From NCBI GenBank assembly GCA_965205015.1, contig OZ242029.1, positions 4,864,001-4,928,000 of the forward strand: DNA of 64,000 nt. Reading direction: 5' to 3'. A model generated the notes under the pieces. That model was not told the DNA's origin. It worked only from the letters and a program-made list of their open reading frames with translations, and ran no database searches. Both the position numbers and the translations under genes were made by a program. Shown in pieces: positions 2,900-23,786 of the stretch; within the stretch, counting starts at the first letter, position 1; each line of letters begins with the position of its first letter. Origin of the DNA: Candidatus Poribacteria bacterium (lineage in GTDB: Bacteria; Poribacteria; WGA-4E; WGA-3G).

Positions 2900-3055
2900 G
2901 TATCTCTTTTTCCCTTCTTGAAAGAGTGAGCTGGACTCGCGATGCCTTTTGGCTGTCGTTGGACTGTCCAGTTTAAAATTCGGGTTGTTCGTAGTGGTGC
3001 AATTCACGCACCTGGGTGGAAGCGCTAAACCACTTACACGAACCCTACGGACGCC

Positions 3056-3457
3056 TTAATCCGTCAAGACCTTCCAAAGCCAGAGTGCTGCTCCGAGCGA
3101 TACGCCCCAGCCTATTGCTGACCTCTCTATCCGTTGGTTCTTGATGGAGCGTTTGTATTCATCAGTATAGGTGTGAACGTATGTAGCGGACTTGCCTAAC
3201 AGTTGATGACTTGGAACTGTCGGATTATTTACGCTTGCCTAGACGATAGCAAACATCCAGCACCCTGCACCATAAGCGAACCAACGCAAGCCTGCGTCGT
3301 GCCACGCATCGCGTCTGGCATCTTCTTGCGCGTGTTGGATGAGTTGGGCGATCGGATCGTGTGGCTCTGTCATCGCTTCTACTGGGGGTATGAGCATATG
3401 GACGCTGATCAGTATAAGGATTATCATTATTGTGATGCATTTGAAAATGAGGTTCAT
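3056..3457 (-). pseudogene. Small secreted/membrane protein interrupted by an in-frame TAG at 3239-3241
   Basis: AAGGAG RBS, then ATG 3457 (MNLIFKCITIMIILIL..., signal-like). The frame continues past the TAG as ASVNNPTVPSHQLLGKSATYVHTYTDEYKRSIKNQRIERSAIGWGVSLGAALWLWKVLTD to TAA 3056. Confidence 0.65.
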
Positions 3458-3712
3458 AGGTTCTCCTTCATACCGAAAAAAAATCGGGTATGTTCCGTTT
3501 ACGATTTCTCTATTTTCACCCAAGTTGCCAGTTGTAGCATAACCTGTTAGGGTGTGCATCTTAAGCACGCAGACTCACAGTCTACGCTACGAAATACCTC
3601 CGAATCATGAAACCATTTCAATGAAAACGGGGACTGTATCCCTAAAATCTTATGAGTAGCAACTTGGGTTATTTTCAACGAAGCCTGGTGCTTTAAGTCA
3701 AAGGAGTTGTGC

Positions 3713-5962: not shown

Positions 5963-6248
5963 ACGGATCTCTCCATTTTTGATTAACGGGTTTGCTACCA
6001 AACCATGACATCCATTGACGGTGTGCGTCCATGGGGGAATCGACTTGAAAACCTTGAGGTCTCCCGATGTGATCACGTCTGGGGCGGTGGGATGACCTAC
6101 GTCCGCCTCACAGGGCACTTCGTCTATGTTTTTCTGCTTATAGAAAACGGTAGATGTGATCCTCCGCAAGCCGAAGAAAGTGCTATGTCTAAGAGGGTCC
6201 ACATCAACCCTTTAGTTAGCTTATGGTCAAGCCTATGGTCATTTGATA

Positions 6249-9200
6249 CTATTTCAAAATCAGCATCTTCCGCGTGGCAGAGAAATCCCCAGCTGTGAGT
6301 GTATAGAAATAAACACCACTCGAAACTTTTTCACCGACAGCGTTACAACCGTCCCAATACGCCGCACGACCTCGCGTCTGATACATTCCGGCAGGTTGAT
6401 ACCCTAACGTTATGGTTCGCACGACTTCACCCGCCGCAGAATATATTGTCAGTGTCACCTCACTTGGGTTCGCCAAGTGATACGGTATCCACGTCTCCGG
6501 ATTGAATGGGTTGGGATAGTTCGCAAGCAGCATTGTCTCTTTTGGAATCAGTGATAGCAGCAGTTCTTGAAGTTTTGCGATCCCCTGTCGGAAGGCGATA
6601 GAGCCGTCATCTTCCATTTGTGCACGTTCTATCCATGTCCGTATTATCGCAGGATCCAATCCGTCTATGTCATCCACAGATAACATCGAAGGGGCGGCTA
6701 ACCCGTTTGATCCACCCATATTCTGAGAAACAAGAATGAGATCTAAGATATTCACAATTCCATCGCCATTCACGTCTACTTCAGCGTTCGCAGGTGCAGT
6801 TTCGCCCAAGTGTCGGGCAATAAGGATCATATCAAGAATGCTGACCTGACCATCGCGATTCACATCTCCAATAGTGAGTTGACCTTCTATCGTGATGACA
6901 ATCTCATAAGATTCTGCGGCGATGTGCTCACCTGTAATAGATCCCATTTGGAGGTTATGCAGTCTCAATTTAGCTTCCCCACTCGTTTTCGCTGAGAACG
7001 TCACCGACACGAGGGTCCCTGTTCCTGAGACACCCTTTCCACTAAGGTCCAATGCGTTAATACCTTTGATTTTGCCCGCGGCATTATCAATCGTCCCTTT
7101 CTGAAAGAGGGTGCTGTCGCCCGCCGACTTCAGGAAAGGACCTTCGTTGACTTCAACGGTCTCAAGCACTGCGGCATCAAACAAAATATCAAATTGCCAC
7201 CCTGCTAAATCACTTACATTCTCCGCGTTTAAGTTGACGGTGAAGGTATCACCGATATGAATTGGCGTATCGGGAAAACCATATCCAATACCGGAGTCCG
7301 ACACTATATATTCCGTACCGGTTTCAAATCCAAAAAAACCGTTAGCATGGGAATGGAAAGCGACCAACAAGACATTTTTCCCCGATTGAAGCGTGACTGG
7401 GTAAAAATCCGTGTAATCATTGCCTATCCTGTCGTAATGACCGTGCTGATGAATCAGGGTACCGTTGAACCAGACTTTTAGTTCCTGGCGACTGCCGACA
7501 CCCAGCATTGTTTGTTGTTCGCGTGGCGAATATAGAGACACAACACCATAGATGGTTCCATCTGGAGTGGAGCGTTTTAGCATATCTTCAATACGCCCCG
7601 TATTTGGGAGTTCGTGGGATGTCCAGACGCTACTGCCGATAGACTGTCCCGCTATTGCCCCACGGACGGCAATCTCTGCCTCTGTTACGCTTCCATCACT
7701 CGCCTCCGACAGTAAATCCGACCCACTCTCCAGATCAGCATCTGGCAATAGGACCCATAACCAGGGTCCTGCTATCTTCGGTCCGCCTTTCGGGAACCCT
7801 GGATTGTCGTGCCAAATGAGCGTTATGTTCTGGCGTATCCCATCCAAAGGCGAAAAGTCGGATATATTATTGTTGTTAAGCCTCAGGTAGTCCAAGTGTG
7901 TCAACCCGGCGAGTGGCGATATGTCGGATACATTGTTGCTTCTGAGATCAAGCGTATTTACGTTGGTTAGCTCAGCGAGTGGCGATATATCGGATATCCC
8001 GTTAGCAGCAAGGAGCAGATTCCTCAAATTTGTCAAACCCACCAAAGGCTTAAGATCGGATATAGTTCCACCACAAATGTCTAACTTCTCCAGTTTTGTT
8101 AATCCTGCCAAAGGGGACAAATCGGATATGGGGTTGCCCCAAAACCAAATCCGTCTCAGATTGGTTAATCCTGCCAGGGGTGAAAGGTCGGATATATTCC
8201 CATGCTTAGTGTCTATCACGATCCCGGTTTCCGTTTCGATTTTGCTGATTGCCTCAAATATACCGCCTTGGTTCGCAGCTACATCCTCCAGGCTGTTTAA
8301 TCCGCTGAGTGGCGACAGGTCGGAGACTTGTGTACGATGAAACCAGAACACCTTGAGATTTTTCAGTCCTTTCAAGGGCGATAAATCGGATATGAGAGGC
8401 GTAGAAGCCCCTAACTCGTTGAGATTGATTAATCCTGCAAGCGGTGATAGATTCGATACATGCGTGTTATCAATTACCAATAGCGTGAGATTTATTAGCT
8501 GCTTCAGGGGCGATAAATCAGATACAGGGTTGCCCGTGAGCCAGAGTGTGTGTAATCCGGTTAAACCCGCTATCGGTGAGAGGTCGGAGATCTGATTACC
8601 GTTGAGAGATAAGCGGCTCAGATTGATTGCTGACTGAAGTCCAGTCAAATCTTGGATGCCCTTGTCACGCGCCACAAGTCTGCCCAATCCTTCCATCTCC
8701 TCGATTGTAATTTGGGCGTTTGGTGCCTTTCCGAGTGCCTCCGCAATTGCCGTACGCAGATTCGGATCGGGCATATGAACAGATTCGCCCGGAATACGTT
8801 CCGTTTGCGGATCAACTGGTGTCACAGCACTTTTTGCTGGGAAATCCAGAGCGAAAACGACTTCACTAAACTGACTTGTCCATGTGTCCCGTTTCATCGT
8901 GTCGTTCTCTAACACCAATAAGCCTAAGTTCTGCAACCCCGCATTCTCACGTATCTTTTGGAGAAACACCTCGGTTTCCAAACCGACCGCTGCAGCAGCA
9001 TGCGCCGCATCAAGCGGTCTCTGAAATGCTTCGTGGAACCGTTGAACGGGTTCAATCCCACCAAATACACCGCCTGTCGCTTCAAGTGCCTGTCGATACC
9101 GAGCGGTATCTTCGCCCACCAAACGATCCATAGTGGCTTTATCAGTATAGAGCTGTAATGCTCTTTCCTTGTTAAAAGGCGGATTCGCGTTCCGTTGAAT

Positions 9201-10469
9201 AACAGCCCGAACTGTATCTTGAAAATCTTTCATCCCCTCGGTGTGGCATCCGATACAGGAGAGTCCGTTACGGACGGTTGGATCGCTCGCAGCCGGATTG
9301 GAAACGATGTCTATCGGTGCCTCATCAAGTCGCCTACCGCCGGCATCCACGAGGTAGTATGCCTGCAATCCATTCGGTAAATTGAAGATAATTTCACCCC
9401 CATCCTGCGTGAAGGAGAGCGGATGCGTAAAGATATTCTGTGTCCCGACACTCCCCGCAAAGTCGTAACTTTTCCAATACGCTCCGTATCGAGAGTCGTG
9501 CCGTTCAACAACACGGTTATGATTGGACACACCGGAATCATTGAAACCCGCACGCCAGACGCGCTTTCCTGGGGCATTCCGAATATTTTCAACGACATTT
9601 ACTTCTAATCGAGTTTCGAGTTCACGATCCGTCTCGGGGAGTCCCAGAATATCATGGTAGAGCGGGGGTAAAGAGGCTGTTGCGATGAACCAATCGACAT
9701 GAACGAACGGCACTTCGCACTCCATTGTTTCCCGCAGGTCTGTCAGTTTTTCGCGAAGTGCTGTCTGTGTTGGCGCGTTGAATTCGATCTCATAAGGATA
9801 CTCCGCCTCAATCAACGTCCATCGATTGGTTCCGATCTCCCATTCGTAGTCGCGCAGATCAATATAGAAGATCGTTTCTTCTGAATCAATGGGTTGTGGA
9901 ATTTTAATAGTACGCCCCCAAGAGAGACTGTTCACGAGTTTTGAGAGTGCGCGTTGATAGGCGTGGAGTGCTTCCGTCGTCTCACCACCGTTATAGAGAT
10001 GCGTCATCGTAAAATAACGTGCGAAGGCACGGTCAAAGGAGGACAGTGAGTTGACGTGCTTTTCAATCGTCTCAAGCATTTTTTTCGGTGTAATAAAGTC
10101 GGTGTCTCGTTCCGGTGTCTGCCAATCCGGTGCGCCTGCTTGAATCCAATTACCAATCGTCAGAATCGCAGCGGGAGGGAGTTGGGGTTGTCCCAGCGGC
10201 ATCCGTTTCGCCGGATCGTTTACAAGCAACCGCTTATAGAGTTCGGAGTCAATCGGTTTCCCCGGAACAACTGCGCCAGTCTCTATGAGTGCTGTGTGAT
10301 CAATGATGATTTCTTCAGTAAACGCGCCGTGTTCTCCATGGCAGTTGAGGCAACTTTGCTCAAAAATCGCATACGCCTGCTGGGCGAGGTTCTGTTGTGC
10401 ATTAGCACTTCCGAACCCTAACGCCATGAAAGTTAAAGTGATAAGTAAAAGATTTTTTGCTGTTTTCAT
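6249..10469 (-). CDS. Secreted multidomain protein: cytochrome c (2x CxxCH) + LRR + cohesin + dockerin + FlgD-Ig/T9SS-like C-terminal tail
   Basis: 1406 aa. Signal peptide; CLNCH (planctomycete cytochrome c-like) and CIGCH; ~12 LRRs; LAGWQFDI cohesin-like region; GDVNRDGQVSILD dockerin; ANYPNPFNPETWIPY...RKMLILK tail. Confidence 0.9.
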   Translation of the reverse strand: MKTAKNLLLITLTFMALGFGSANAQQNLAQQAYAIFEQSCLNCHGEHGAFTEEIIIDHTALIETGAVVPGKPIDSELYKRLLVNDPAKRMPLGQPQLPPAAILTIGNWIQAGAPDWQTPERDTDFITPKKMLETIEKHVNSLSSFDRAFARYFTMTHLYNGGETTEALHAYQRALSKLVNSLSWGRTIKIPQPIDSEETIFYIDLRDYEWEIGTNRWTLIEAEYPYEIEFNAPTQTALREKLTDLRETMECEVPFVHVDWFIATASLPPLYHDILGLPETDRELETRLEVNVVENIRNAPGKRVWRAGFNDSGVSNHNRVVERHDSRYGAYWKSYDFAGSVGTQNIFTHPLSFTQDGGEIIFNLPNGLQAYYLVDAGGRRLDEAPIDIVSNPAASDPTVRNGLSCIGCHTEGMKDFQDTVRAVIQRNANPPFNKERALQLYTDKATMDRLVGEDTARYRQALEATGGVFGGIEPVQRFHEAFQRPLDAAHAAAAVGLETEVFLQKIRENAGLQNLGLLVLENDTMKRDTWTSQFSEVVFALDFPAKSAVTPVDPQTERIPGESVHMPDPNLRTAIAEALGKAPNAQITIEEMEGLGRLVARDKGIQDLTGLQSAINLSRLSLNGNQISDLSPIAGLTGLHTLWLTGNPVSDLSPLKQLINLTLLVIDNTHVSNLSPLAGLINLNELGASTPLISDLSPLKGLKNLKVFWFHRTQVSDLSPLSGLNSLEDVAANQGGIFEAISKIETETGIVIDTKHGNISDLSPLAGLTNLRRIWFWGNPISDLSPLAGLTKLEKLDICGGTISDLKPLVGLTNLRNLLLAANGISDISPLAELTNVNTLDLRSNNVSDISPLAGLTHLDYLRLNNNNISDFSPLDGIRQNITLIWHDNPGFPKGGPKIAGPWLWVLLPDADLESGSDLLSEASDGSVTEAEIAVRGAIAGQSIGSSVWTSHELPNTGRIEDMLKRSTPDGTIYGVVSLYSPREQQTMLGVGSRQELKVWFNGTLIHQHGHYDRIGNDYTDFYPVTLQSGKNVLLVAFHSHANGFFGFETGTEYIVSDSGIGYGFPDTPIHIGDTFTVNLNAENVSDLAGWQFDILFDAAVLETVEVNEGPFLKSAGDSTLFQKGTIDNAAGKIKGINALDLSGKGVSGTGTLVSVTFSAKTSGEAKLRLHNLQMGSITGEHIAAESYEIVITIEGQLTIGDVNRDGQVSILDMILIARHLGETAPANAEVDVNGDGIVNILDLILVSQNMGGSNGLAAPSMLSVDDIDGLDPAIIRTWIERAQMEDDGSIAFRQGIAKLQELLLSLIPKETMLLANYPNPFNPETWIPYHLANPSEVTLTIYSAAGEVVRTITLGYQPAGMYQTRGRAAYWDGCNAVGEKVSSGVYFYTLTAGDFSATRKMLILK

Positions 10470-10541
10470 AGTGTATTCTCCGGCTTAAAAGTATTACGAA
10501 TTGATAACACTATCGCCGTTGAGATCGGCAGATGGGTCTAT

Positions 10542-13220
10542 CTATTTCAGGTAGATTTCACCGTCCAAATCAGCAAGGGTGTGCTGAATATTGGTGATGC
10601 CCCTCGCGACAGCGGATGCTTGCGCCGGTAAATAAATCTCTTGCGCTTTTCCGCTGCGATTGTAGACTGCCCAACCATTGGTGAACTCCCGGATAAACAA
10701 ACCCTCAACCCCATGTCCCTTACCATCACGATAAAGGCGCGCCTTCTCGCCTACAGGACGACCGAGGTCCGCATCCCAGAATGGATACCAATAGTGTTGG
10801 TGGTTGTGATTATGCCGCTCACCTACTATATGTTCTCTCTCATGTTCGGGCGAGAGCGCGTATTCATGCTGATGGATGATGCCGGTAACTCCCATGACAT
10901 AACAAACGTAACCATCAGAATGTGTGAGGCTCAACGTCGTAATAACACGCATCATTTGCTGGTTACGGGGAGAATCTGGACGCTCAAACGGAATTCCTTG
11001 ACCTTCAAGCGCATTTATTCGCGGTCCACGAAAGTTCTGCTCCGACCATAACAACGTGCTTTCAATCTCTCGGAGACGCTCATGCGTGTAAGCCGTATCA
11101 CCTTCGTCCAGAATCGTTTCTATGAACGCCCCATTAAGGTAGGGTGCAGACAGTCGAGCTTTATGCCGTCCCGTATTGACAATCATCAGAAAATTGTCAC
11201 CAACAGCCTCACGAATCCGACGCATCATAGATATTCTCGCCGACCACTCGGCTTCAACACCTCGATAGTAAACCCCGTTGTCGTCCTCAAGCGTAACCTC
11301 GCCTTCCTGCCACCGTCCCAAGAAGACCCCGTCATGGAGACTACATTTCGCGACGGCGAGAACTTTCTGAACGAGGATGTCCTGGACGACAGGGTGTGTG
11401 AAATCTATCAGGAAGGTGGAACCCCCAGCGTAAGCTTGAACTCGATCGCCGTTCGCATCTCTTATCCAATGGGGCCACTCTTCAGGGTAGTCGCTTGGAT
11501 CAGCATCAATGTAGTCGAGACTCACAAGTCTTAGAAAGTTAGGATTTTTTGAAAGCAGATACTCCCTTTTCCCGTGTGCATCGTCTATTCTACCAAAGAG
11601 CCGGAGTCCTTCAGGTGTAGGCTGCCATTGCAGATGAAACCCCGGTCCACCCCAAAATAGATCGTGATAGACGAGTTCCTCATCTGCAGATAAGTTTGGT
11701 ACGTTGAGCATATCGTAATACCACGCTGAAAAGACCGAAGGATACTCCCTATCTTTGATACGAGATGCTACCGCGACCCGCGATATATCATCACAGATCC
11801 GGAAATTGCCATGCGTGTGTAACTCCTCTAAGTGCGTCAGCCCATCGAGGGGTGAAAAATCCCGAATATCATTATTTTCTACTAATAACTTTTTGAGATT
11901 GACTAACCCTGCAAGGGGTGAAATATCTTCGATGTGGTTCTGCCAAACATGTAAAGTCTCTAAACGCGTGAGTGCTGTGAGCGGACGTAGGTCCGAAATC
12001 TGGTTCTCTCCCAAATCCAGAAAAGCAAGTCCCGTTAGACTTGACAAAGGAGATATATCGTGAATCTTGTTCCCTATCAGAACAAGTGCTTGCAAATCAG
12101 TCGCGTGCTCTAAACCTATAAGATCGACGATCCCTTTATATCGCACATCAAGGGTTGTTAGGTGTTGAAGATCCCCCGGTGCCAATAGGTGGTGTGCTGG
12201 AAGCTGAAGCGTTTCTCGGACAGCCTGTCGGAGCGCGGAGTCCGGCATCCACTGTCCCTCAGAAAGTTTGAGTGAATCTTTTGAGGCATTGGGTGTTAAA
12301 TGCCTCTCGGGATCGTGTAAGCCGGTACTATTGTTTTTACTGATGGTGGTCGTTTGTCCAATTTGATTTCGCACGGAGGGTTTTGCGTCAGTCTCAAGGA
12401 CAATAGGGGCATCCATAATTTCAACGGTCGGGGCGGATTCAGCCTCGAAGCTGTAAGGTTTCTGAAAATGTGCGAGGTATTGGTTGCTGACGCTGAGCAT
12501 CAACAGGGTTGCTAAAACCACAGCACTCCCAAAAGCCGCCCACGGCAAGAACGGTTCCATTTTCGGAGAAGGGGTCGGTTGCATGTTAGCAACCTCTCGC
12601 ATGATGTTCTGTTTTATACTCGCCGATATCTGCACACCCCCGAGCACTTCTTGGATCAACAGTTCTTCATCTTCTTGTAACCGTTTCCGGGCACGATGCA
12701 GCCGAGTCCTTATCGTCTCCACTGACACCCCCAAGAATTTGCCAATGTCCTTCGTCGTCATTTCACCGAGATAATAGAGCGTCATCGCTGTCCGTTCACT
12801 CTCCGGCAATTTCTCCAAAAGTTTTTTGACGATTTCAAAACGATGTTCGGTTGCCTCTGTCTCGCGCCGTTCTAAGATGTAACGCGCATAAGCGGATTTC
12901 ACCACTTCTTCCACAGGTGTGTCCTCCAAGGATTGCAAGTGTCTTTCAGGTTTCTGTTTGCGCAGCCAATTCAGACACAGCCGATTCGCAATGACATACA
13001 GCCACCCGAGAAACTGGCTCGGATTTCTCAGCGTTGAAAGGTTTTGATAGGCACGGAGGAAAGTATCTTGCGTAATTTCCTCTGCATAGTGGAAATCACC
13101 GATCTTCCGCCACACGAGGGCGTGAACACTTTTTTGGTATTTTTCTACTAAAATGTCAAATGCCGTGTCGTCGCCTGACAAAACGGCATGAATCAACTGA
13201 ACATCGTCTTTTCTCTCCAC
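10542..13220 (-). CDS. ECF sigma-70 factor fused via a TM helix to LRR and hydrolase-like extracytoplasmic domains
   Basis: 892 aa. Region 2 (AEEITQDTFLRAY...FLGWLYVIANRLCLNWLRK) and region 4 (LPESERTAMTLYYL...IGKFLGVSVETIRTRLHRARKRL), a hydrophobic helix (FLPWAAFGSAVVLATLLML), LRRs, and the same C-terminal module as 3713..5962. Confidence 0.9.
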   Translation of the reverse strand: MERKDDVQLIHAVLSGDDTAFDILVEKYQKSVHALVWRKIGDFHYAEEITQDTFLRAYQNLSTLRNPSQFLGWLYVIANRLCLNWLRKQKPERHLQSLEDTPVEEVVKSAYARYILERRETEATEHRFEIVKKLLEKLPESERTAMTLYYLGEMTTKDIGKFLGVSVETIRTRLHRARKRLQEDEELLIQEVLGGVQISASIKQNIMREVANMQPTPSPKMEPFLPWAAFGSAVVLATLLMLSVSNQYLAHFQKPYSFEAESAPTVEIMDAPIVLETDAKPSVRNQIGQTTTISKNNSTGLHDPERHLTPNASKDSLKLSEGQWMPDSALRQAVRETLQLPAHHLLAPGDLQHLTTLDVRYKGIVDLIGLEHATDLQALVLIGNKIHDISPLSSLTGLAFLDLGENQISDLRPLTALTRLETLHVWQNHIEDISPLAGLVNLKKLLVENNDIRDFSPLDGLTHLEELHTHGNFRICDDISRVAVASRIKDREYPSVFSAWYYDMLNVPNLSADEELVYHDLFWGGPGFHLQWQPTPEGLRLFGRIDDAHGKREYLLSKNPNFLRLVSLDYIDADPSDYPEEWPHWIRDANGDRVQAYAGGSTFLIDFTHPVVQDILVQKVLAVAKCSLHDGVFLGRWQEGEVTLEDDNGVYYRGVEAEWSARISMMRRIREAVGDNFLMIVNTGRHKARLSAPYLNGAFIETILDEGDTAYTHERLREIESTLLWSEQNFRGPRINALEGQGIPFERPDSPRNQQMMRVITTLSLTHSDGYVCYVMGVTGIIHQHEYALSPEHEREHIVGERHNHNHQHYWYPFWDADLGRPVGEKARLYRDGKGHGVEGLFIREFTNGWAVYNRSGKAQEIYLPAQASAVARGITNIQHTLADLDGEIYLK

Positions 13221-13641: not shown

Positions 13642-13978
13642 TCTCACGCAGGAACCGCATCTGTCCAGATGGACCCAGTTTTCCTGAAATTACGCTAAGT
13701 CCAAACCGATAAACCTCAATATCTGCCATTTCACTTATGTCTTTCGGAGATTTATTTTCGGGTCCCTCTTGTTTTTTTTCACGGAGATCTTGAATCCCTT
13801 GCATAATTGTCTCCATATCCAGACCGTCTAACCACTTGTGACGTTCAGCGGTATAATCGCCCGTGGGAGGCTCACACTGCCTAAGGAATCGAATTGTTCC
13901 AGCACGCCCCAATTTATCCAAAAGGATCTCAAGTCCCAACTCGTAAACTTCAGTGTCTGACATCTCTCGTATGTTCAT
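13637..13978 (-). CDS. Putative antitoxin with internally duplicated domain, probably 3'-truncated
   Basis: Two copies of a unit (IREMSDTEVYELGLEILLDKLGRAGTIRFLR / ISEMADIEVYRFGLSVISGKLGPSGQMRFLR). The GDYTAERHKWL motif is typical of PIN-associated antitoxins. Confidence 0.65.
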   Translation of the reverse strand: MNIREMSDTEVYELGLEILLDKLGRAGTIRFLRQCEPPTGDYTAERHKWLDGLDMETIMQGIQDLREKKQEGPENKSPKDISEMADIEVYRFGLSVISGKLGPSGQMRFLREI

Positions 13979-14045
13979 TGGTACTTATCTCCTGTAACCA
14001 TTATGTAGATTTCCAACGCGTACCCGAAATCGGATAATTAAGCAC

Positions 14046-14075
14046 TCCCTTTAAGAGAAGGCGAGGTCAGGAAAC
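14046..14075. repeat. REP-like palindrome / probable terminator for the 14634..15257 gene
   Basis: AAGGCGAGGT-CAGGAA-ACCTCGCCTT perfect 10-bp inverted repeat. Confidence 0.6.
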
Positions 14076-14187
14076 CTCGCCTTACGGGTAATCAGGGATA
14101 AAATTTACCACTCCCCCGCTAAAGTTTCCCCTACCTTTAGGTAGGGGATGTAAGCGGAAACCAAGGGTGTGAAAGTCTCAATTAAAC

Positions 14188-14216
14188 TTGAAATTATACA
14201 GAAAATGTGGTATGAT
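14188..14216 (+). promoter_or_regulatory. Sigma-70 promoter inside the IS-like element
   Basis: TTGAAA-N17-TATGAT with extended -10 TG. Confidence 0.7.
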
Positions 14217-14222
14217 TCTTAT

Positions 14223-14637
14223 ATCAACGGGATAGGATAACAATCACCCGAAACCTATCGGGTGTCCTATCCAACCCAATTGTTAGGGTAGCGTTGACGT
14301 TGATACTTTCAACAAATACCACTTTTCGATTTATGAGTTATTAGCAAGGTTATGACCCTTGCGATCGTTTGTGATGAGTTGCTTTGGTAGAGATTGTGAA
14401 ATCACCTTTAATTTCACAACCGCCACACTGTATAGCAACGTCTTATCAAAGTATCGGTCTATTCTATGGGGTAATCGGAATAGTCCGTAGTTGTGCATTG
14501 GCTGGCACCGCGATTGTTGTATCGTGTCACCAGTAGAAATACTGGGAACGGCATTTAGACCGTAAGAGTGTACCCAGCGACTGAAATAGGATCGCCAAGC
14601 AAAGAAACCCCATGCTTTAGCTTGCGGGAGCAGTCAT
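14223..14637 (+). ncRNA. Candidate ~410-nt structured ncRNA with omega/reRNA-like 3' end
   Basis: Nested helices: TCAACG/CGTTGA enclosing GGATAGGA/TCCTATCC and CACCCGA/TCGGGTG; GATACTTT/AAAGTATC enclosing GCAAGG/CCTTGC and TTGTGAAAT/ATTTCACAA; CTATTC/GAATAG; CCAGTA-GAAA-TACTGG tetraloop. No ORF. Confidence 0.55.
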
Positions 14638-15257
14638 TTGCGTTTAGAGGGTGCTTCCATCGCTGGATAGATTTCTATATCCGCTCGCGTGATGAGAACG
14701 CCGACGTAGAAGGTCAACCAGTCGCCGCAGAGCTCAATAGACATGTACTCGTCGTTATCACTGGCGTACTCGTGAAGTTCAACATCAAACTTATCTTCCC
14801 CTTCGGCATTGGCGAGGGTAAGGGTGGCAGGCACAACGTCTTGTCGGTTATATTCAACAGCGATGTCCTCACCCTGACTATCTGAGTTAGGAAAATAGAG
14901 GGTCATTGTGTCCGGCAACGGATCGCCGAGTTCACATTCGTCGTCAACAATCCATCGGGAAATCTCGTATTCGTCCTTCGTCCCAGCGACATGATCGACC
15001 CCGATAACGACCTCTTCCTCCGCGTCTTGGACGTGATACATATAGCGGCGGAGGCTGTTACCTTCATACTTCTTCCGTGTGACCAGTTTGAAGGCGTGCG
15101 AAGTATCTCCCGTCTCCTCATACGTAATGATATCGGAGAGTTCAATCATGCTATCAAGCGGAATGTCGACTAACTCATGTCGCTCCGGTTTCTTGGGTTC
15201 AGCGTCCTTTCGTCTACCAAACAGGGGTGTGCCATCTTTTCTACCAAACAGTGCCAT
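14634..15257 (-). CDS. Hypothetical acidic protein, DUF4178-like
   Basis: 207-aa acidic, beta-rich ORF ending in YMSIELCGDWLTFYVGVLITRADIEIYP, which resembles DUF4178 C-termini (by eye). Confidence 0.55.
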   Translation of the reverse strand: MALFGRKDGTPLFGRRKDAEPKKPERHELVDIPLDSMIELSDIITYEETGDTSHAFKLVTRKKYEGNSLRRYMYHVQDAEEEVVIGVDHVAGTKDEYEISRWIVDDECELGDPLPDTMTLYFPNSDSQGEDIAVEYNRQDVVPATLTLANAEGEDKFDVELHEYASDNDEYMSIELCGDWLTFYVGVLITRADIEIYPAMEAPSKRK

Positions 15258-16516: not shown

Positions 16517-16590
<74 letters not shown>

Positions 16591-18035: not shown

Positions 18036-18171
18036 GACCTACGCGACTCTCTGGTAGTACCTGTCACCGAACCAACAGAAACCTTGCCTCTATGTCCGTA
18101 TGCCCGACCGTACAGCACCCGGACAAAAACCTATATCTGCGGTAAGAAATAAAAAAACAAGGAGACTCTTT

Positions 18172-20679
18172 ATGAAATCGACATCTGTTTTCGTTGCTTT
18201 TTGGCTGGTGCTTATTTGTGCCCTAACAAGTTTCGCCCAAGATTACACCAAGTGGAATTTACCGGAGGGAGCGGTTGCCCGTCTCGGCAAAGGCAGTATA
18301 AATGAGATAGCGTATTCCCCGGATGGCGATCGGTTCGCGACAGCCGGTGGTGCTGGTATTTGGATATACGATGCGGATAGCGGTGAAGAATTAGCAATCC
18401 TCACAGGGGACTCGAAAGGGCTGGGCCTGAGCCTGAGCATTGCGTATAGTCCAGATGGGAAAACACTCGCAACGGGGAGTTCGGACGGCACCGTGCGTCT
18501 CTGGGACCCAAACACTGGCACTCTCAAAAACACACTCACTGAACGCATAGGCTATGTCTGGAGTGTCGCGTATAGTCCAGATGGGAAAACACTCGCAACG
18601 GGGAGTTCGGACAGCCCGGTGCGTCTCTGGGACCCAAACACTGGCACTCTCAAAAACACACTCACTGAACACACAAAAGGAGTCTCGAATGTAGCGTATA
18701 GTCCAGATGGGAAAACACTCGCAACGGGGAGTTCGGACGGCACCGTGCGTCTCTGGGACCCAAACACTGGCACTCTCAAAAACACACTCACTGAACACAA
18801 GTACTCTGCCCTGAGCGTAGCGTATAGTCCCGATGGCACTACCCTCGCAAGTGGGAGTACGGACAGCACCGTGCGTCTCTGGGATGCAAGGACAGGCACT
18901 CTCAAACATACACTCACTGGACGCACGGGCTGGATCTGGGTCCATAGTGTCGCGTATAGTCCAGATGGGAAAACACTCGCAACGGGGAGTTCGGACGGCA
19001 CCGTGCGTCTCTGGGACCCAAACACTGGCACTCTCAAAAACACACTCACTGGACGCATGGGCGCGTACTGTGATGACTTTAGTGTAGCGTATAGTCCCGA
19101 TGGCACCACCCTCGTAAGTGGGAGTACGGTCGACACTGTGCGTCTCTGGGACCCAAACACTGGCACTCTCAAAAACATACTCACCGGACATACGCCCTCT
19201 GTCCAGAGTGTCGCGTATAGTCCAGATGGGAAAACACTCGCAACGGGGAGTTCGGACAGCACCGTACGTCTCTGGAACACCACGACAGGCACCCTCCGAC
19301 AGACGCTCACTGGACACACTTGGGGGATCAAGAGCGTCGCGTATAGTCCAGATGGGAAAACACTCGCAACGGGGAGTTTGAACAGCACCGTGCTTCTATG
19401 GGATGCGACGACAGGCACCCTCAAAAACACACTCACTGGACACACGGACAGGGTCTTTAGTGTCGCGTATAGTCCAGATGGGAAAACACTCGCAACGGGG
19501 AGTTCGGACCACACTGTGCGTCTATGGGATGCGACGACAGGCACCCTCAAAAACACACTCACTGGACACACGGACGATGTCCGGAGTGTCGCGTATAGTC
19601 CAGATGGGAAAACACTCGCAACGGGGAGTTCGGACCACACTGTGCGTCTATGGGATGCGAGAACAGGTACGCTCAAACACGCACTCACTAGATACACGAC
19701 CGAAGTCTATAGCGTTGCGTATAGTCCGGATGGGAACGCACTCGTAACTGGGGGTTCGGACCGCACCGTGCGTCTATGGGATGTCACGACAGGAATCTCC
19801 AAATACGCCACTGGACACACGGACAATGTCCGGAGTGTAGCGTATAGTCCGGATGGGAACACACTCGCAACAGGGAGTTCGGACCATACCGTGCGTCTAT
19901 GGGATGTCACGACAGGTGCCCTCAAAAACACACTCACCGGACAGACGTACGTTTCAAGTGTAGCGTATAGTCCCGATGGAAACACCCTCGCAAGTGGGAG
20001 TTCGGACGGCACCGTGCTGCTGTGGCAACTCACACCCACTGAACCCACCGACGCACCCAAGCAACTTGCCGCCGACATCAACGCCGATGGACAGGTCAAT
20101 ATCCAAGACCTCGCGCTCGTCGCCACCGCATTCGGGCAGACGGGGGAAAATACGGCGGATGTCAACGCCGATGGGAAAGTTGATATCCAAGACCTCACGC
20201 TCGTCGCCGCCGCATTCGGAAACAGAAACGGTGCCCCCAAGGCATCGCACCCAGACTCCGCAAGCAGTGCCAATAGAGAACAGGTCCAGCACTGGCTCAC
20301 ACAGGCACGGCAATCTGCCCTCACCGATCCTGTTTCGCTCCGTGGCATTGCTGTGCTGGAGCAACTCCTCGCTGCCTTGACGCCTACAGAGACGGCACTC
20401 CTGCCGAACTATCCGAATCCGTTCAATCCGGAGACGTGGATCCCCTATCAACTCTCGAAACCTGCGGCGGTTACGGTGAGTATCTATACGGCGGATGGCA
20501 CGCGGGTCCGCGTTTTGGCGGTCGGGCATCAAGCGGCGGGGATGTATCAGCACCGCAGCCGGGCGGTGTATTGGGACGGCAGGAACACGCAAGGGGAGTC
20601 TGTGGCGAGTGGCGTCTATTTCTATACGTTGACCGCTGGCGATTTCACTGCGACTCGGAAGATGATCATACGAAAGTAG
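18172..20679 (+). CDS. Secreted WD40 protein (14 repeats) + dockerin + FlgD-Ig/T9SS-like tail
   Basis: Signal peptide MKSTSVFVAFWLVLICALTSFAQ; 14 AYSPDG..LW repeats; ADINADGQVNIQDL dockerin; NYPNPFNPETWIPY tail. Confidence 0.93.
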   Translation: MKSTSVFVAFWLVLICALTSFAQDYTKWNLPEGAVARLGKGSINEIAYSPDGDRFATAGGAGIWIYDADSGEELAILTGDSKGLGLSLSIAYSPDGKTLATGSSDGTVRLWDPNTGTLKNTLTERIGYVWSVAYSPDGKTLATGSSDSPVRLWDPNTGTLKNTLTEHTKGVSNVAYSPDGKTLATGSSDGTVRLWDPNTGTLKNTLTEHKYSALSVAYSPDGTTLASGSTDSTVRLWDARTGTLKHTLTGRTGWIWVHSVAYSPDGKTLATGSSDGTVRLWDPNTGTLKNTLTGRMGAYCDDFSVAYSPDGTTLVSGSTVDTVRLWDPNTGTLKNILTGHTPSVQSVAYSPDGKTLATGSSDSTVRLWNTTTGTLRQTLTGHTWGIKSVAYSPDGKTLATGSLNSTVLLWDATTGTLKNTLTGHTDRVFSVAYSPDGKTLATGSSDHTVRLWDATTGTLKNTLTGHTDDVRSVAYSPDGKTLATGSSDHTVRLWDARTGTLKHALTRYTTEVYSVAYSPDGNALVTGGSDRTVRLWDVTTGISKYATGHTDNVRSVAYSPDGNTLATGSSDHTVRLWDVTTGALKNTLTGQTYVSSVAYSPDGNTLASGSSDGTVLLWQLTPTEPTDAPKQLAADINADGQVNIQDLALVATAFGQTGENTADVNADGKVDIQDLTLVAAAFGNRNGAPKASHPDSASSANREQVQHWLTQARQSALTDPVSLRGIAVLEQLLAALTPTETALLPNYPNPFNPETWIPYQLSKPAAVTVSIYTADGTRVRVLAVGHQAAGMYQHRSRAVYWDGRNTQGESVASGVYFYTLTAGDFTATRKMIIRK

Positions 20680-20822
20680 CACTATTTCCAGAAGATTATA
20701 TCGCATTGGCGGACCGTCTCAAAGACTGCACAGGAGACCAACGGTCTCCTATGCTACAAAGCACTCGTTTGTGGAAGCATTTTCAATTGCGGTAAGAGAT
20801 AAAAAAACAAGGAGAATGTCTC

Positions 20823-23786
20823 ATGAAACCGACACCTGTTTTCGTTGCTTTTTGGCTGGTGCTTATCTGTGCCCTAACGAGTTTCGCCCAAGATTACACC
20901 ACGTCGAATTTACCGGAGGGAGCGATTGCCCGTCTCGGCAAAGGCGTTGTAAAGGAGATAGCGTATTCCCCGGATGGCGATCGGCTTGCGATAGTGAGTA
21001 GTGTAGGTATTTGGATATACGATGCGGGGAGCGGTGAAGAATTGGCACTCCTCACTGAACACAAGGAAGCGGTCAATAGTGTTGCGTATAGTCCCGATGG
21101 AAACACACTCGCAACGGGGGGTTCGGGCGATGTGCGTTTATGGGATGCGAAGACAGGCACGCTCCGACAGACGCTCACCGAACAAGGGGTCGAGGTCACA
21201 GATATTACGTATAGTCCCGATGGAAATACACTCGCAACGGGGGGTGTCTGGAACGAAGGGCATCTATGGGATGTGAAGACAGGCACACTCAAACATAAAC
21301 TCCCTGGAACCGTGGGCTGTATCGCCTCACATGTTGCGTATAGTCCCGATGGGAACACACTCGCAACGGGGCGTAGTGACGGCACCCTGCGTCTATGGGA
21401 TGCAGCGACAGGTACGCTCAAAAACACGCTCAAAAACACGCTCACTGAACACAAGGAGGCGGTCAATAGTGTTGCGTATAGTCCCGATGGGAATACACTC
21501 GCAACGGGGAATGAGGACGGCACCGTGCGTTTATGGGATGCAACCACAGGCACGCTTCGACAGACGCTCACTGGACGCATAGGCATAGTGAGTGGCTGGT
21601 ATCGTGGCATGGTCAATAGTGTTGCGTATAGTCCCGATGGGAACACACTCGCAACGGGGAGTGGGGACGGCACCGTGCGTTTATGGGATGCAACCACAGG
21701 CACGCTCAAAAACACGCTTACTGGACACACGGATTGGGTCAGTAGTGTTGCGTATAGTCTCGATGGAAACACACTCGCAACGGGGAGTACGAACGGCACC
21801 GTGCATTTATGGGATGCAACCACAGGCATACTCAAAAACACACTCACTGGACACACGAGTTATGTCTTTAGTGTTGCGTATAGTCTCGATGGAAACACAC
21901 TCGCAACGGGAGGTTCGCGCGATGTGCGTTTATGGGATGCAACCACAGGCACGCTCAAAAACACGCTCACTGGACACACGTATCAGGTCAGAAGTGTTGC
22001 GTATAGTCCCGATGGGAACACACTCGCAACGGGGAGTAGGGACGGCACCGTGCGTTTATGGGATGCAACCACAGGCACGCTCAAAAACACATTCACTGGA
22101 CACACGAGCGAGAGTGTTGCGTATAGTCCCGATGGGAACACACTCGCAACGGGGAGTGGGGACGGCACCGTGCTGCTGTGGGATGCAACCACAGGCACGC
22201 TCAAAAACACGCTCACTGGACACAAGGGGAATGCCCTTAGTGTTGCGTATAGTCCCGATGGGAATACACTCGTAAGTGGAGGTTTTGACAGCACTGTGCG
22301 TTTATGGGATGCAACCACAGGCATACTCAAAAACACACTTACTGGACACAAGGAGGGGGTCTATAGTGTTGCGTATAGTCCCGATGGGAACACACTCGCA
22401 ACGGGGAGTAGGGACGGCACCGTGCGTCTATGGGATGCAACCACAGGCACGCTCAAAAACACACTTACTGGAAACACGGATGGAGTCTTTAGTGTTGCGT
22501 ATAGTCCCGATGGGAACACACTCGCAAGTGGGGGGGACACCACCGTGCGTTTATGGAATGCAACCACAGGCACGCTCAAACACACGCTCACTGGAAACAC
22601 GAACGTAATCAAAAGTGTTGCGTATAGTCCCGATGGGAACACACTCGCAACGGCGGGTGCGAACGGCACCGTGCTGCTGTGGGATGTCACACCCTACAAC
22701 TCACAAACTTATTCGGTTGAAACAGATAGTCTCACAGAAGTACCTGAGGTGTCTGTCAACAGTGATGTTGCGCATGTGAGTCTCTCCGCTGCGTCGGTCT
22801 GGTCTGGCACTATAGGTGACCAACTGACGGTGAACGCTAACATCACAGAGGGTGTAGACGTGAGGGGGTATCAAATAGAACTCATTTTCGAGCGTGCAGC
22901 ACTGCGTTTTGTGTCAAGTGTGGATGGCGGGTATCTGCCGGCGGGTGCTTTCGTTGTGCCGCCCGTGGTGAATGGCAATCGGGTCACGTTTGGGGCGACA
23001 TCTCTACAAGCGAGTAGCGAAGGGGATGGGACGCTTGCGGCCTTCACGTTTGAAGCATTGACTGCCTCGCCTGCGCTGCCGACACTCTCCGATGTGAAAC
23101 TGGCCGACAGTGATGCCAACTTCTTAGCCGTGCGGATTGAGACCAAGACGGGAGAAGTCGGTCTTACCTCTCTTGCGGGAGACGTGAACGGTGATGGTGT
23201 GGTGAGTCTTGAGGATATGACTGTGGCTTCGGGGCGTCTGGGTCAGACAGGTGAGAACACAGCGGATATGAACAAGGATGGCGTAGTGGATGTGGCGGAT
23301 CTCCTGTTAGTTGCAGCAGCGATAGAAGCCGCGGCGGCTGCCCCGTCGCTGCATCCGGAGCGTATTGCTGAGATGTTCACTGCAACAGAGGTGCGTCAGT
23401 GGTTATCGCTTGCGCGGGCAGAAGGTCTCACAGGTGGGCGGTATCAGCGAGGGGTGCTGCTTCTGGAACACCTTCTTATGAGACTCACCCCGAAAGAGAC
23501 GTTGCTCTTAGCGAACTATCCGAATCCGTTCAATCCGGAGACGTGGATACCGTATCAGTTATCAGAGCCTGCGGATGTGTCTATTTTCATCTATGCTGCA
23601 GATGGACGTTTGGTTCGGATGCTGACGTTAGGGCATCAGTCTGCGGATATCTATGCGTCTCGGAGCCGTGCGGCGTATTGGGACGGCAGGAACACGCAAG
23701 GGGAGTCTGTGGCGAGTGGCGTCTATTTCTACACGTTGACTGCCGGCGATTTCACGGCAACCCGGAAGCTGTTGATACGAAAGTAA
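20823..23786 (+). CDS. Secreted WD40 protein (14 repeats) + cohesin + dockerin + FlgD-Ig/T9SS-like tail
   Basis: Tandem paralog of the preceding gene with near-identical leader and signal peptide; 14 WD40 repeats; VRGYQIELIF cohesin-like region; GDVNGDGVV dockerin; same tail. Confidence 0.93.
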   Translation: MKPTPVFVAFWLVLICALTSFAQDYTTSNLPEGAIARLGKGVVKEIAYSPDGDRLAIVSSVGIWIYDAGSGEELALLTEHKEAVNSVAYSPDGNTLATGGSGDVRLWDAKTGTLRQTLTEQGVEVTDITYSPDGNTLATGGVWNEGHLWDVKTGTLKHKLPGTVGCIASHVAYSPDGNTLATGRSDGTLRLWDAATGTLKNTLKNTLTEHKEAVNSVAYSPDGNTLATGNEDGTVRLWDATTGTLRQTLTGRIGIVSGWYRGMVNSVAYSPDGNTLATGSGDGTVRLWDATTGTLKNTLTGHTDWVSSVAYSLDGNTLATGSTNGTVHLWDATTGILKNTLTGHTSYVFSVAYSLDGNTLATGGSRDVRLWDATTGTLKNTLTGHTYQVRSVAYSPDGNTLATGSRDGTVRLWDATTGTLKNTFTGHTSESVAYSPDGNTLATGSGDGTVLLWDATTGTLKNTLTGHKGNALSVAYSPDGNTLVSGGFDSTVRLWDATTGILKNTLTGHKEGVYSVAYSPDGNTLATGSRDGTVRLWDATTGTLKNTLTGNTDGVFSVAYSPDGNTLASGGDTTVRLWNATTGTLKHTLTGNTNVIKSVAYSPDGNTLATAGANGTVLLWDVTPYNSQTYSVETDSLTEVPEVSVNSDVAHVSLSAASVWSGTIGDQLTVNANITEGVDVRGYQIELIFERAALRFVSSVDGGYLPAGAFVVPPVVNGNRVTFGATSLQASSEGDGTLAAFTFEALTASPALPTLSDVKLADSDANFLAVRIETKTGEVGLTSLAGDVNGDGVVSLEDMTVASGRLGQTGENTADMNKDGVVDVADLLLVAAAIEAAAAAPSLHPERIAEMFTATEVRQWLSLARAEGLTGGRYQRGVLLLEHLLMRLTPKETLLLANYPNPFNPETWIPYQLSEPADVSIFIYAADGRLVRMLTLGHQSADIYASRSRAAYWDGRNTQGESVASGVYFYTLTAGDFTATRKLLIRK

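Follow-up and report, generated by a model that had tools for sequence, protein, structure and literature searches.

The window analysed here is a 64,000-nucleotide (nt) chromosomal stretch of a Candidatus Poribacteria bacterium, a sponge symbiont, and the subject of this report is a mobile element, referred to below as type A, which occupies a 655-bp gap between two minus-strand genes. An earlier note, made from the letters of the window, had described the segment as an element of the IS200/IS605 type that lacks an open reading frame (ORF) and carries its own promoter and a densely structured RNA. This observation of an ORF-less insertion with ends, promoter and RNA is confirmed. The features of the locus are listed here by window position, with protein lengths in amino acids (aa).

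14060–14081, minus strand: terminator-like hairpin of the host gene, GGCGAGGT…ACCTCGCC, kept beside the gene end in relatives; its role as a terminator is putative.
14105–14108, plus strand: TTAC, the target motif and predicted transposon-adjacent motif (TAM), directly 5' of the left end; empty sites read …TTAC/TTGCG…, the stroke marking the insertion point.
14109–14637, plus strand: the type A element from left end to right end, 529 bp, ORF-less and of the IS200/IS605 family; the site is empty in relatives, and a profile made from the copies aligns with it end to end.
14130–14149, plus strand: left-end subterminal hairpin, CCCCTACC-TTTA-GGTAGGGG, with CTAAAG just before it; the same type of hairpin lies upstream of tnpA and tnpB in relatives.
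14188–14216, plus strand: promoter, with a -35 box TTGAAA, a 17-nt spacer and an extended -10 box TGgTATGAT; 10 of 12 consensus matches, predicted start at about 14223.
14608–14628, plus strand: right-end subterminal hairpin, CCCCAUGC-UUUA-GCUUGCGGG, whose helix is 98% paired in the comparison.
14634–15257, minus strand: host gene, 207 aa, no Pfam family; the right end of the element now provides its last codon and stop (…AAA TGA).
14638–14653, plus strand: predicted guide of about 16 nt, TTGCGTTTAGAGGGTG, in the right flank and antisense to the host-gene 3' end, placed there by analogy with TnpB biology.

The host gene makes it possible to recognise the insertion in related genomes. Its 207-aa protein has relatives at 66–92% identity in 57 full-length and 3 partial loci, all 60 of them in Poribacteria metagenome-assembled genomes. 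When the gap was compared with these loci by BLAST, window positions 13983–14108 were found to adjoin the gene end in relatives, and 14109–14633 were unmatched there. Junctions reading …GGGATAAAAyTTAC/TTGCGTTTAGAGGG…, which equal the flanks of the window minus 529 bp, are present in 11 of the 14 related loci inspected, and 14109–14637 is therefore an insertion 3' of TTAC without target duplication, exactly as the earlier note had drawn it. The other three loci (L012, L009 and L010) differ in sequence on the left side. Contigs of run X2 that come from co-occurring relatives also join across the empty site. The insertion falls between the last codon of the host gene and its stop; relatives end in …AAG TAA at the empty site, and the insert now parts the terminator-like hairpin from the stop codon. 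No type A right end was found in the four closest relatives searched (G001–G004), so the window copy can be regarded as a lineage-specific gain. Within the window, the element is single-copy.

Other inserts can be seen at the same spot after the 207-aa gene. L012 (about 6621–8207) holds some 1.47 kb there, an insert that follows TTTAT and has a related left end but is oriented the other way, and L009 (about 6621–7027) holds an insertion of about 280 bp. Judging from these arrangements, the spot looks like a repeated insertion target.

The element belongs to a large mobile family. Some part of it is matched in 75 of 175 Poribacteria genomes, and 31 unique ORF-less copies of about 518–657 bp were gathered, each with a different flank, so that copies with varied surroundings as well as an empty site, the two things that the earlier note had proposed to look for, were both found. 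The left flank of these 31 copies ends in TTAC in 19, TTAT in 7 and TTTT in 1, with 4 unparsed. Type A copies have diverged to 66–77% identity and form several subfamilies, each with its own right-end tail; genome G156 holds three full copies at 77% identity and genome G005 about nine diverged copies. In an alignment of 12 copies with their flanks, similarity begins after (T/A)TTAC and ends at …GGGAGC(A/C)GTCAN, and the flanks are unrelated. The hairpins at both ends, which stand in place of terminal inverted repeats, are conserved and covarying in the copies, in agreement with the original description of the ends as IS200/IS605-type. Counts of the right-end motif in five genomes were 9, 8, 13, 14 and 3, against 0 for a reversed control, and the 30 loci fetched comprise 29 complete ORF-less elements and one lone right end, none with tnpB. 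The motif matches 45 of the 175 genomes, but its matches in G049–G062 are part of a third tnpB clade, and for this reason it was not used as a co-occurrence marker.

A few loci of the wider family deserve mention in their own right. In L069 (G005:C1, about 749658–750364), a type A copy lies within a tnpB gene; the zinc-ribbon match stops at 749804 and the right end of the element is at 749797. The type A copy L072 (G005) carries an extra insert of about 80 bp between left hairpin and promoter, with inverted repeats GGGAAAATCGGG…CCCGATTTTCCC, which may be a tiny nested element. The third tnpB clade (L196–L200, of the G049–G062 group) has right ends of the form …GGGAGCAGTCAA and a different 3' RNA (…GGAGATTCTGTAAG…AGTCTATCATAAGAATCCC…); two of its members, L196 and L199, seem to be truncated and have no complete tnpB frame upstream.

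The promoter noted earlier as TTGAAA-17-TATGAT, now seen to have an upstream TG, is kept in every aligned copy, as TTGACA-17-TGTGGTATAAT (TTGACA-17-TGnTATAAT). A promoter scan is not above chance by itself (3 sites against 3.1 expected in the region), so the weight of this feature rests on its conservation across copies. It lies on the top strand about 415 nt upstream of the right end and points through that end into the flank, which would fit an omega-RNA scaffold followed by its guide. In the window, it reads antisense to the 207-aa host gene.

The claim that the segment carries neither tnpA nor tnpB was also borne out. ORFs inside the window element reach at most 55 aa, and none is conserved among the 31 copies; the longest frames vary in strand and place, and recurrent plus-strand frames give unrelated peptides. 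A tblastn search of the elements with nine TnpB proteins, five from clade 1 and four from clade 2 (the clades are introduced below), gave nothing significant, the best E-values being 0.16 and 0.059. A few marginal collinear matches involve the last 40 or so TnpB residues and fit the omega-RNA overlap discussed below. The absence of any RuvC or zinc-finger remnant thus holds in protein searches, but it does not extend to the RNA, the 3' part of which still derives from the last codons and tail of a tnpB gene.

The RNA predicted to start at this promoter is composite, with a length of 420–540 nt across copies. It consists of a leader (domain 1), a middle domain (domain 2) and an omega-RNA-like 3' domain, the parts of which are as follows.

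14224–14297, plus strand: domain 1, the leader module, made up of helices P1, P2, P3 and P4 and a kissing pseudoknot.
14224–14229 with 14292–14297, plus strand: P1, TCAACG/CGTTGA, enclosing the short hairpin P4 and a long one made of P2 and P3, between which lies a 7-nt internal loop.
14230–14237 with 14265–14272, plus strand: P2, domain 1.
14245–14251 with 14258–14264, plus strand: P3, domain 1.
14275–14277 with 14286–14288, plus strand: P4, domain 1.
14238–14244 (UAACAAU) with 14279–14285 (AUUGUUA), plus strand: kissing pseudoknot of domain 1, 7 bp between the internal loop and the P4 loop.
14299–14313, plus strand: hairpin P5, GUUGA-UACUU-UCAAC, with the compensatory variants GUUGG/CCAAC and AACGG/CCGUU, seen by eye and uncounted.
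14316–14322, plus strand: ATACCAC, conserved in the type A consensus, at the same place as the clade-2 tnpB start.
14323–14447, plus strand: domain 2, with a hairpin at 14344–14362, a conserved loop UUAUGAY, and then the nested helices TTGCT/AGCAA and TTGTGAAAT/ATTTCACAA.
14448–14637, plus strand: omega-RNA-homologous domain of about 190 nt, comprising AAAGUAUC, hairpins Ha (14455–14487), Hb (14493–14508) and Hc (14509–14526), a GAAA hairpin (14530–14545), Hf (14548–14563), Hg (14577–14595), the right-end hairpin and a 3' tail.
14499–14504, plus strand: 5' strand of pseudoknot 2, UGGCUG, in the loop of hairpin Hb, pairing with 14631–14636.
14631–14636, plus strand: 3' strand of pseudoknot 2, CAGUCA, at positions -7 to -2 before the predicted guide.

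Comparison of the copies supports this structure. RNAalifold, run on a 14-sequence alignment that extends from the -10 box to the right end (A1), gave 62 pairs, 38 of them with compensatory change. Over the 59 pairs of a curated set, the share of paired cells is 95.0%, as opposed to 81.2% in shuffles and 35–43% with slid partners, and 36 of the 59 change on both sides, a number that none of 500 shuffles equals; the covariation that the earlier note had asked after is therefore present. G-U cells outnumber A-C cells by 41 to 12 (of 896), which favours the plus strand. Minimum-energy z-scores do not separate the strands (-3.6 for plus, -5.4 for minus). One further pairing, of the UGAU in the domain 2 loop with the terminal GUCA, had emerged from the first RNAalifold run and was set aside: its columns are invariant and its 3' letters are used by the covarying pseudoknot 2, which leaves it as a possible alternative pairing only.

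The ten pairings that had been proposed from the window alone are all present there; six pass the comparison, and four, as judged by eye on the alignments, are not kept in other copies. Supported are TCAACG/CGTTGA, GCAAGG/CCTTGC, TTGCT/AGCAA, TTGTGAAAT/ATTTCACAA, CTATTC/GAATAG and the GAAA hairpin. In the case of GATACTTT/AAAGTATC, which had been thought to close domain 2, the pairing is lost in other copies and clashes with the covarying hairpin at 14299–14313. GATGAG/CTTATC and CTGGG/CCCAG are likewise not kept, and the suggested pseudoknot CGGTCTA/TAGACCG is missing from, for example, the G156 copies; two other pseudoknots are supported in its stead.

Rfam offers no name for this RNA. At the gathering threshold, the whole window yields tRNA only; with both strands searched at E <= 10 in positions 13900–14800 and at E <= 1 in 12 related loci, only chance-level rows for small nucleolar RNAs, microRNAs and small RNAs appear, none of them inside elements. 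Put differently, no family is matched in the element region of the window at E <= 10 or inside seven other copies at E <= 1. HEARO, the IS605-orfB motifs, group I and II introns and known ribozymes, most of which the earlier note had singled out for this search, were rejected on these grounds.

Domain 1 is the best supported part of the structure. With its pseudoknot it has 31 pairs, of which 98.4% of cells are paired (84.3% in shuffles) and 21 show compensatory change, and 0 of 500 shuffles is as high. Downstream of their promoters, the tnpB-only elements of both clades have this fold too, and so does type B, a second ORF-less kind described below. In six of these tnpB-leader and type B sequences, the 7-mers of the pseudoknot are wholly different yet complementary, e.g., UACGAAG/CUUCGUA, GAAACAG/CUGUUUC and UUUUCAC/GUGAAAA, and three further leaders appear alike by eye. 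It should be noted that the comparison of leaders across element types consists of single-sequence folds, the joint alignment (A3) being mis-registered for P1 and P2. The tnpA-tnpB elements have short leaders without domain 1, so TnpA does not need it; ORF-less elements keep it, so it is not merely a control of tnpB translation. No published description of a structured 5' leader in tnpB elements was found in the titles, abstracts and passages searched, which is weak evidence of absence.

A P1-like strand is repeated right after P1, as CCUGAUACCUGAU in the tnpB leaders of L119, L121, L122 and L123 and as GUUGAC GUUGAU…UCAAC in the window (14299–14313). The 5' strand of P1 consequently has two possible partners, and such an arrangement could act as a switch.

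At the end of domain 1, the 3' strand of P1 leads into the start of tnpB (ACGATGTATACCACG) in clade-2 elements, at the place where type A has ATACCAC. On the strength of this shared position, ATACCAC is likely a remnant of the first codons of clade-2 tnpB (ATG TAT ACC ACG). Helices 5–7 of the curated set, which lie in domain 2, are 85–92% paired, with compensatory change in 11 of 16 pairs, and tblastn with TnpB proteins found no significant similarity to this domain.

The 3' domain connects the element to TnpB. From 14448 to the right end, the RNA is collinear with the last 30–40 or so codons and the 3' tail of clade-2 tnpB, from which, to judge by this alignment, it is descended. In nhmmer searches, a clade-2 profile matches the window at E 9e-4 and the best type A copy at 1.7e-5, and a type A profile matches clade-2 loci at 0.016–0.04. 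Type A shares its order of modules with the tnpB 3' ends found in the same genomes: AAAGUAUC, a hairpin, GU(U)AGUCG and a 4-bp hairpin with a UGGC loop, followed by two or three hairpins with CUUAAAC-type and CUAUAAGC-type loops, AAAG-A-A, the right-end hairpin and the tail. Single-sequence folds of 18 copies and a joint alignment (A4) also contribute to the evidence for this domain. Pseudoknot 2 is paired in 18 of 18 type A sequences, where its variable position is G-C in 10 and U-A in 8, and in 16 of 16 sequences of A4, with A-U, U-A and G-C states and A-U in all 8 tnpB-linked RNAs. As a source of type A, the clade-1 omega-RNA was rejected, since the profile of clade 1 (type B and tnpB-only) matched the right-end hairpin only. 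The earlier remark that the RNA is much larger than a typical omega-RNA holds as regards its size, but this size is explained by a leader and a middle domain placed before a scaffold and not by one giant scaffold.

Relatives that do carry genes share the head of the element. The left hairpin and the promoter also stand at the front of three other element kinds, namely tnpA-tnpB elements and tnpB-only elements of clade 1 and clade 2, and the promoter is common to these and to types A and B. Loci for TnpA and TnpB that share the left end of the window element, another item the earlier note had wished to see checked, thus exist. The Y1 transposase family of tnpA (PF01797) is present in 154 of the 175 genomes of the phylum, and 9 of 12 tnpA loci fetched carry the type A left end and promoter; the tnpA-tnpB elements L127 and L133 have the type A left end. 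Clade-1 tnpB-only elements have open frames of 370–382 codons from stop to stop, with PF07282 and PF01385 in 5 of 6 ORFs tested, and a right end …GGGTGCTATCAC. Clade-2 tnpB-only elements encode a protein of about 386 aa from the ATG, end in …GGAG(G/T)ATGTCA(A/T) and are located after TTTAC. TTAC therefore lies 5' of the left end in both type A and clade-2 tnpB elements, as target motif and predicted TAM alike. G005 has 46 TnpB domain matches and G156 has 36. Type B elements (L102, L104, L107, L111 and L114, about 1500–1990 in each) measure about 460–490 bp and have the same left end, promoter and leader fold, with the right end …GGGTGCTATCAC; the RNA at their 3' end shows clear homology to that of the clade-1 tnpB-only elements.

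We consider it probable that type A is an omega-RNA-only derivative of an IS605-type transposon, similar to the palindrome-associated transposable elements (PATEs), that uses both TnpA and TnpB in trans. Since the element has ends but no protein gene, its mobilisation must be in trans. The proposal in the earlier note of a mobile noncoding RNA gene moved in this way is upheld by the empty sites, by the many copies with varied flanks after TTAC or TTAT, by tnpA elements with the same left end and promoter, and by the covariation. Among the three functions it had offered for the RNA, a guide scaffold is favoured by the homology to clade-2 omega-RNA; a ribozyme-like RNA and a new cargo class found no support, there being no Rfam match. 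The element would have kept in cis only its two hairpin ends, a strong outward promoter and an RNA extending across the right end into the flanking DNA. A TnpA from elsewhere would recognise the hairpin ends, excise the element and re-insert it. Transcription from the promoter would yield an RNA with its 3' end in the flank; a TnpB from elsewhere (clade 2) would load it, with the 16–20 nt after 14637 as guide, and would cut the emptied donor site at TTAC (the TAM) and the right flank (the target). Recombination with a sister copy would then repair the cut and restore the element, which amounts to homing.

Several findings weigh against this reading. No tnpA or tnpB is present among the 40 ORFs scanned in the 64-kb window. 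Of the 16 genomes that have type A interiors, 9 contain a close clade-2 TnpB (E <= 1e-140), and three of these nine have a truncated best match; at E <= 1e-60, the counts are 12 of 16 type A genomes against 80 of the other 159 (Fisher p 0.07), where it must be borne in mind that the genomes are related, the counts non-independent and some genomes fragmented. The profile E-values for omega-RNA homology, 1.7e-5 to 0.04, come from small databases and give moderate support. Relative to the clade-2 tnpB-linked RNA, the first hairpin of type A is longer, some 45–60 additional nt stand before the right end, and both the tail at that end and the pseudoknot have letters peculiar to type A (C(A/C)GUCA vs AUGUCA); because of this divergence, cross-loading of type A RNA onto TnpB is not assured. 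One RNA-library contig joins the last 145 nt of a related copy to 123 nt of a different flank, and DNA carry-over is possible there. Finally, domains 1 and 2, about 225 nt together, are conserved yet unexplained by an omega-RNA model.

These extra domains invite a bolder proposal, which we put forward only tentatively and regard as rather doubtful: that the protein-less lineage is a self-standing guide-RNA parasite of the TnpA and TnpB of others, with two additional RNA modules kept or gained, and that its 5' module is an undescribed functional RNA of IS605 transposons. The 7-mer of this module is rewritten in every subfamily and still complementary, and the module heads the tnpB-only transcripts of two TnpB clades. 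It might serve as a nuclease-resistant 5' cap structure, as a sensor, or as a docking site that sets the amount of omega-RNA or TnpB.

The presence of a clade-2 tnpB left end, promoter, leader, ATACCAC start remnant and omega-RNA tail could also be explained by deletion, leaving a tnpB element without its ORF that is still moved by TnpA and whose RNA has no role, its structure being inherited and not selected. A close intact cognate TnpB is absent or truncated in 10 of the 16 type A genomes, which would suit such an inert remnant. Unselected RNA, however, should not retain compensatory pairs, and here 95% of cells remain paired among copies at 66–77% identity, although both partners have changed in 36 of the 59 pairs; both pseudoknots covary, and the promoter is found in every aligned copy. 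The subfamilies with their own right-end tails and the up to 14 right-end motif matches per genome speak in the same direction. We think an inert remnant unlikely. The RNA might also serve a different partner or purpose: it could guide a nuclease-dead TnpB-like repressor or another TnpB clade, or be an antisense or regulatory RNA for the gene that it is read into, which here would be the 3' end of the 207-aa gene. An outward promoter antisense to the host gene, the conserved and unexplained domains 1 and 2, and the very numerous and diverse TnpB relatives in these genomes are all compatible with this. Flanks and neighbour genes differ for every copy, though, and the closest relatives have an empty site, which leaves no fixed target in the host; the closest relative of the scaffold is the omega-RNA of a nuclease-type clade-2 tnpB, and no TldR-like gene turned up, though none was searched for. 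We judge this explanation, too, to be improbable.

A self-splicing or self-cleaving RNA, that is, an IStron-like group I intron or other ribozyme between IS605 ends, is very improbable. The RNA is large and has GAAA-type loops, and its GUGAUGAG stretch recalls a hammerhead core. PATEs with IStron ends do exist, according to the literature consulted. On the other hand, no Rfam family is matched on either strand at the thresholds given above, the RNA in the window is antisense to the interrupted gene, and, because the internal promoter starts downstream of the left end, the RNA cannot hold a 5' splice site at the element boundary.

An omega-RNA-only element can be placed among several known systems. 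IS608 of Helicobacter pylori encodes tnpA and tnpB, inserts 3' of TTAC without duplication, and has subterminal hairpins of the CCCC…TTTA…GGGG type and a right end of TCA plus one base. Type A is like IS608 in target, hairpin type and right end, and unlike it in having neither tnpA nor tnpB. HEARO, the omega-RNA of IscB, is a large structured RNA at IS200/IS605 ends of which ORF-less copies are known, and the IscB guide is at the 5' end, outside the left end. In contrast, type A has no Rfam match, a promoter inside the left end, and a TnpB geometry with the predicted guide 3' of the right end.

The kind of element to which type A would belong, a protein-less IS200/IS605 derivative with an omega-RNA, is already known. 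In the passages of Meers et al. 2023 (PMC10055086) drawn on here, PATEs are stated often to encode omega-RNAs that require the TnpB of other elements in trans; homing has been shown for tnpB elements, and these passages propose it for PATEs. Type A resembles the PATEs of Geobacillus stearothermophilus treated there in having no protein gene, ends as in co-resident IS605 elements, a guide scaffold for a foreign TnpB and TnpA in trans. It differs from them in its occurrence in Poribacteria, its own lineage and its distinct right-end tail. Its RNA of 420–540 nt has a pseudoknotted leader and a middle domain before the omega-RNA part. In the library searched, no publication linking Poribacteria and TnpB was found. 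New, then, are the family and its host phylum, the composite RNA of 420–540 nt, the lineage-specific right end with a covarying pseudoknot, and the pseudoknotted leader common to tnpB-only elements.

The scaffold itself can be compared with that of ISDra2. A TnpB guide RNA consists of a scaffold across the right end and a guide of about 16 nt from the flank; a pseudoknot that links an upstream stretch to the last nucleotides ahead of the guide is a conserved hallmark of TnpB/Cas12 guide RNAs. In the ISDra2 omega-RNA, nucleotides -5 to -3 are paired with -103 to -105 (Nakagawa et al. 2023, PMC10097598). Like this omega-RNA (also called reRNA), the type A scaffold would end at the right end and have the flank as its guide; type A also has the pre-guide pseudoknot, and its predicted TAM equals its target motif. 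In Rfam terms, the two have no sequence similarity. In tnpB elements, the omega-RNA shares sequence with the 3' part of the ORF and is processed out of the mRNA, whereas type A has no ORF and a promoter about 415 nt upstream of the right end. With the IStron-derived PATE of Clostridioides difficile (preprint of Zedaveinyte et al. 2023), type A shares the lack of an ORF, IS605-type ends and a large structured RNA. In an IStron, the RNA is a group I intron that forms part of the host-gene transcript, with splicing at the element boundaries, whereas type A RNA has an internal promoter, lacks a group I signature and lies antisense to the host gene; neither RF00028 nor any other intron was matched at E <= 10 in the element region of the window.

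If an omega-RNA-only reading is correct, type A is a clean case from nature of the least that an element needs in order to benefit from RNA-guided homing, namely two ends, a promoter and a guide RNA. Its movement is dated by an empty site in close relatives, and dozens of diverged copies are at hand for comparison. The idea that a guide RNA by itself can parasitise TnpB, which until now has been mentioned only in passing, thereby becomes testable. Covariation also provides a map of the omega-RNA scaffold and its pseudoknot for an uncharacterised TnpB clade of sponge symbionts, which could help in the use of this clade as an editing tool. The pseudoknotted leader common to tnpB-only elements, for its part, is a well-supported and unexplained RNA fold.

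A number of minor observations were made in RNA runs and in the surroundings of the element. Only one RNA run, examined as contigs, contains a small share of the element's words. In run X2, the summed contig depth at window positions 14220–14283 is about ten times the baseline (1749 vs 171); contig depth is a poor measure, and the value fits the presence of many related leader copies in the sample. The wider neighbourhood of the element consists of proteins with leucine-rich repeats, dockerin/cohesin domains and WD40 repeats, together with ribosomal-protein operons. Four large proteins in a row, with leucine-rich repeats, dockerin/cohesin and planctomycete cytochrome c domains, are encoded at 2–13220 on the minus strand, and one of them is fused to an extracytoplasmic function (ECF) sigma factor. 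A tRNA gene lies at 16517–16590, and two WD40-repeat proteins of 859 and 987 aa are encoded at 18100–23786 on the plus strand.

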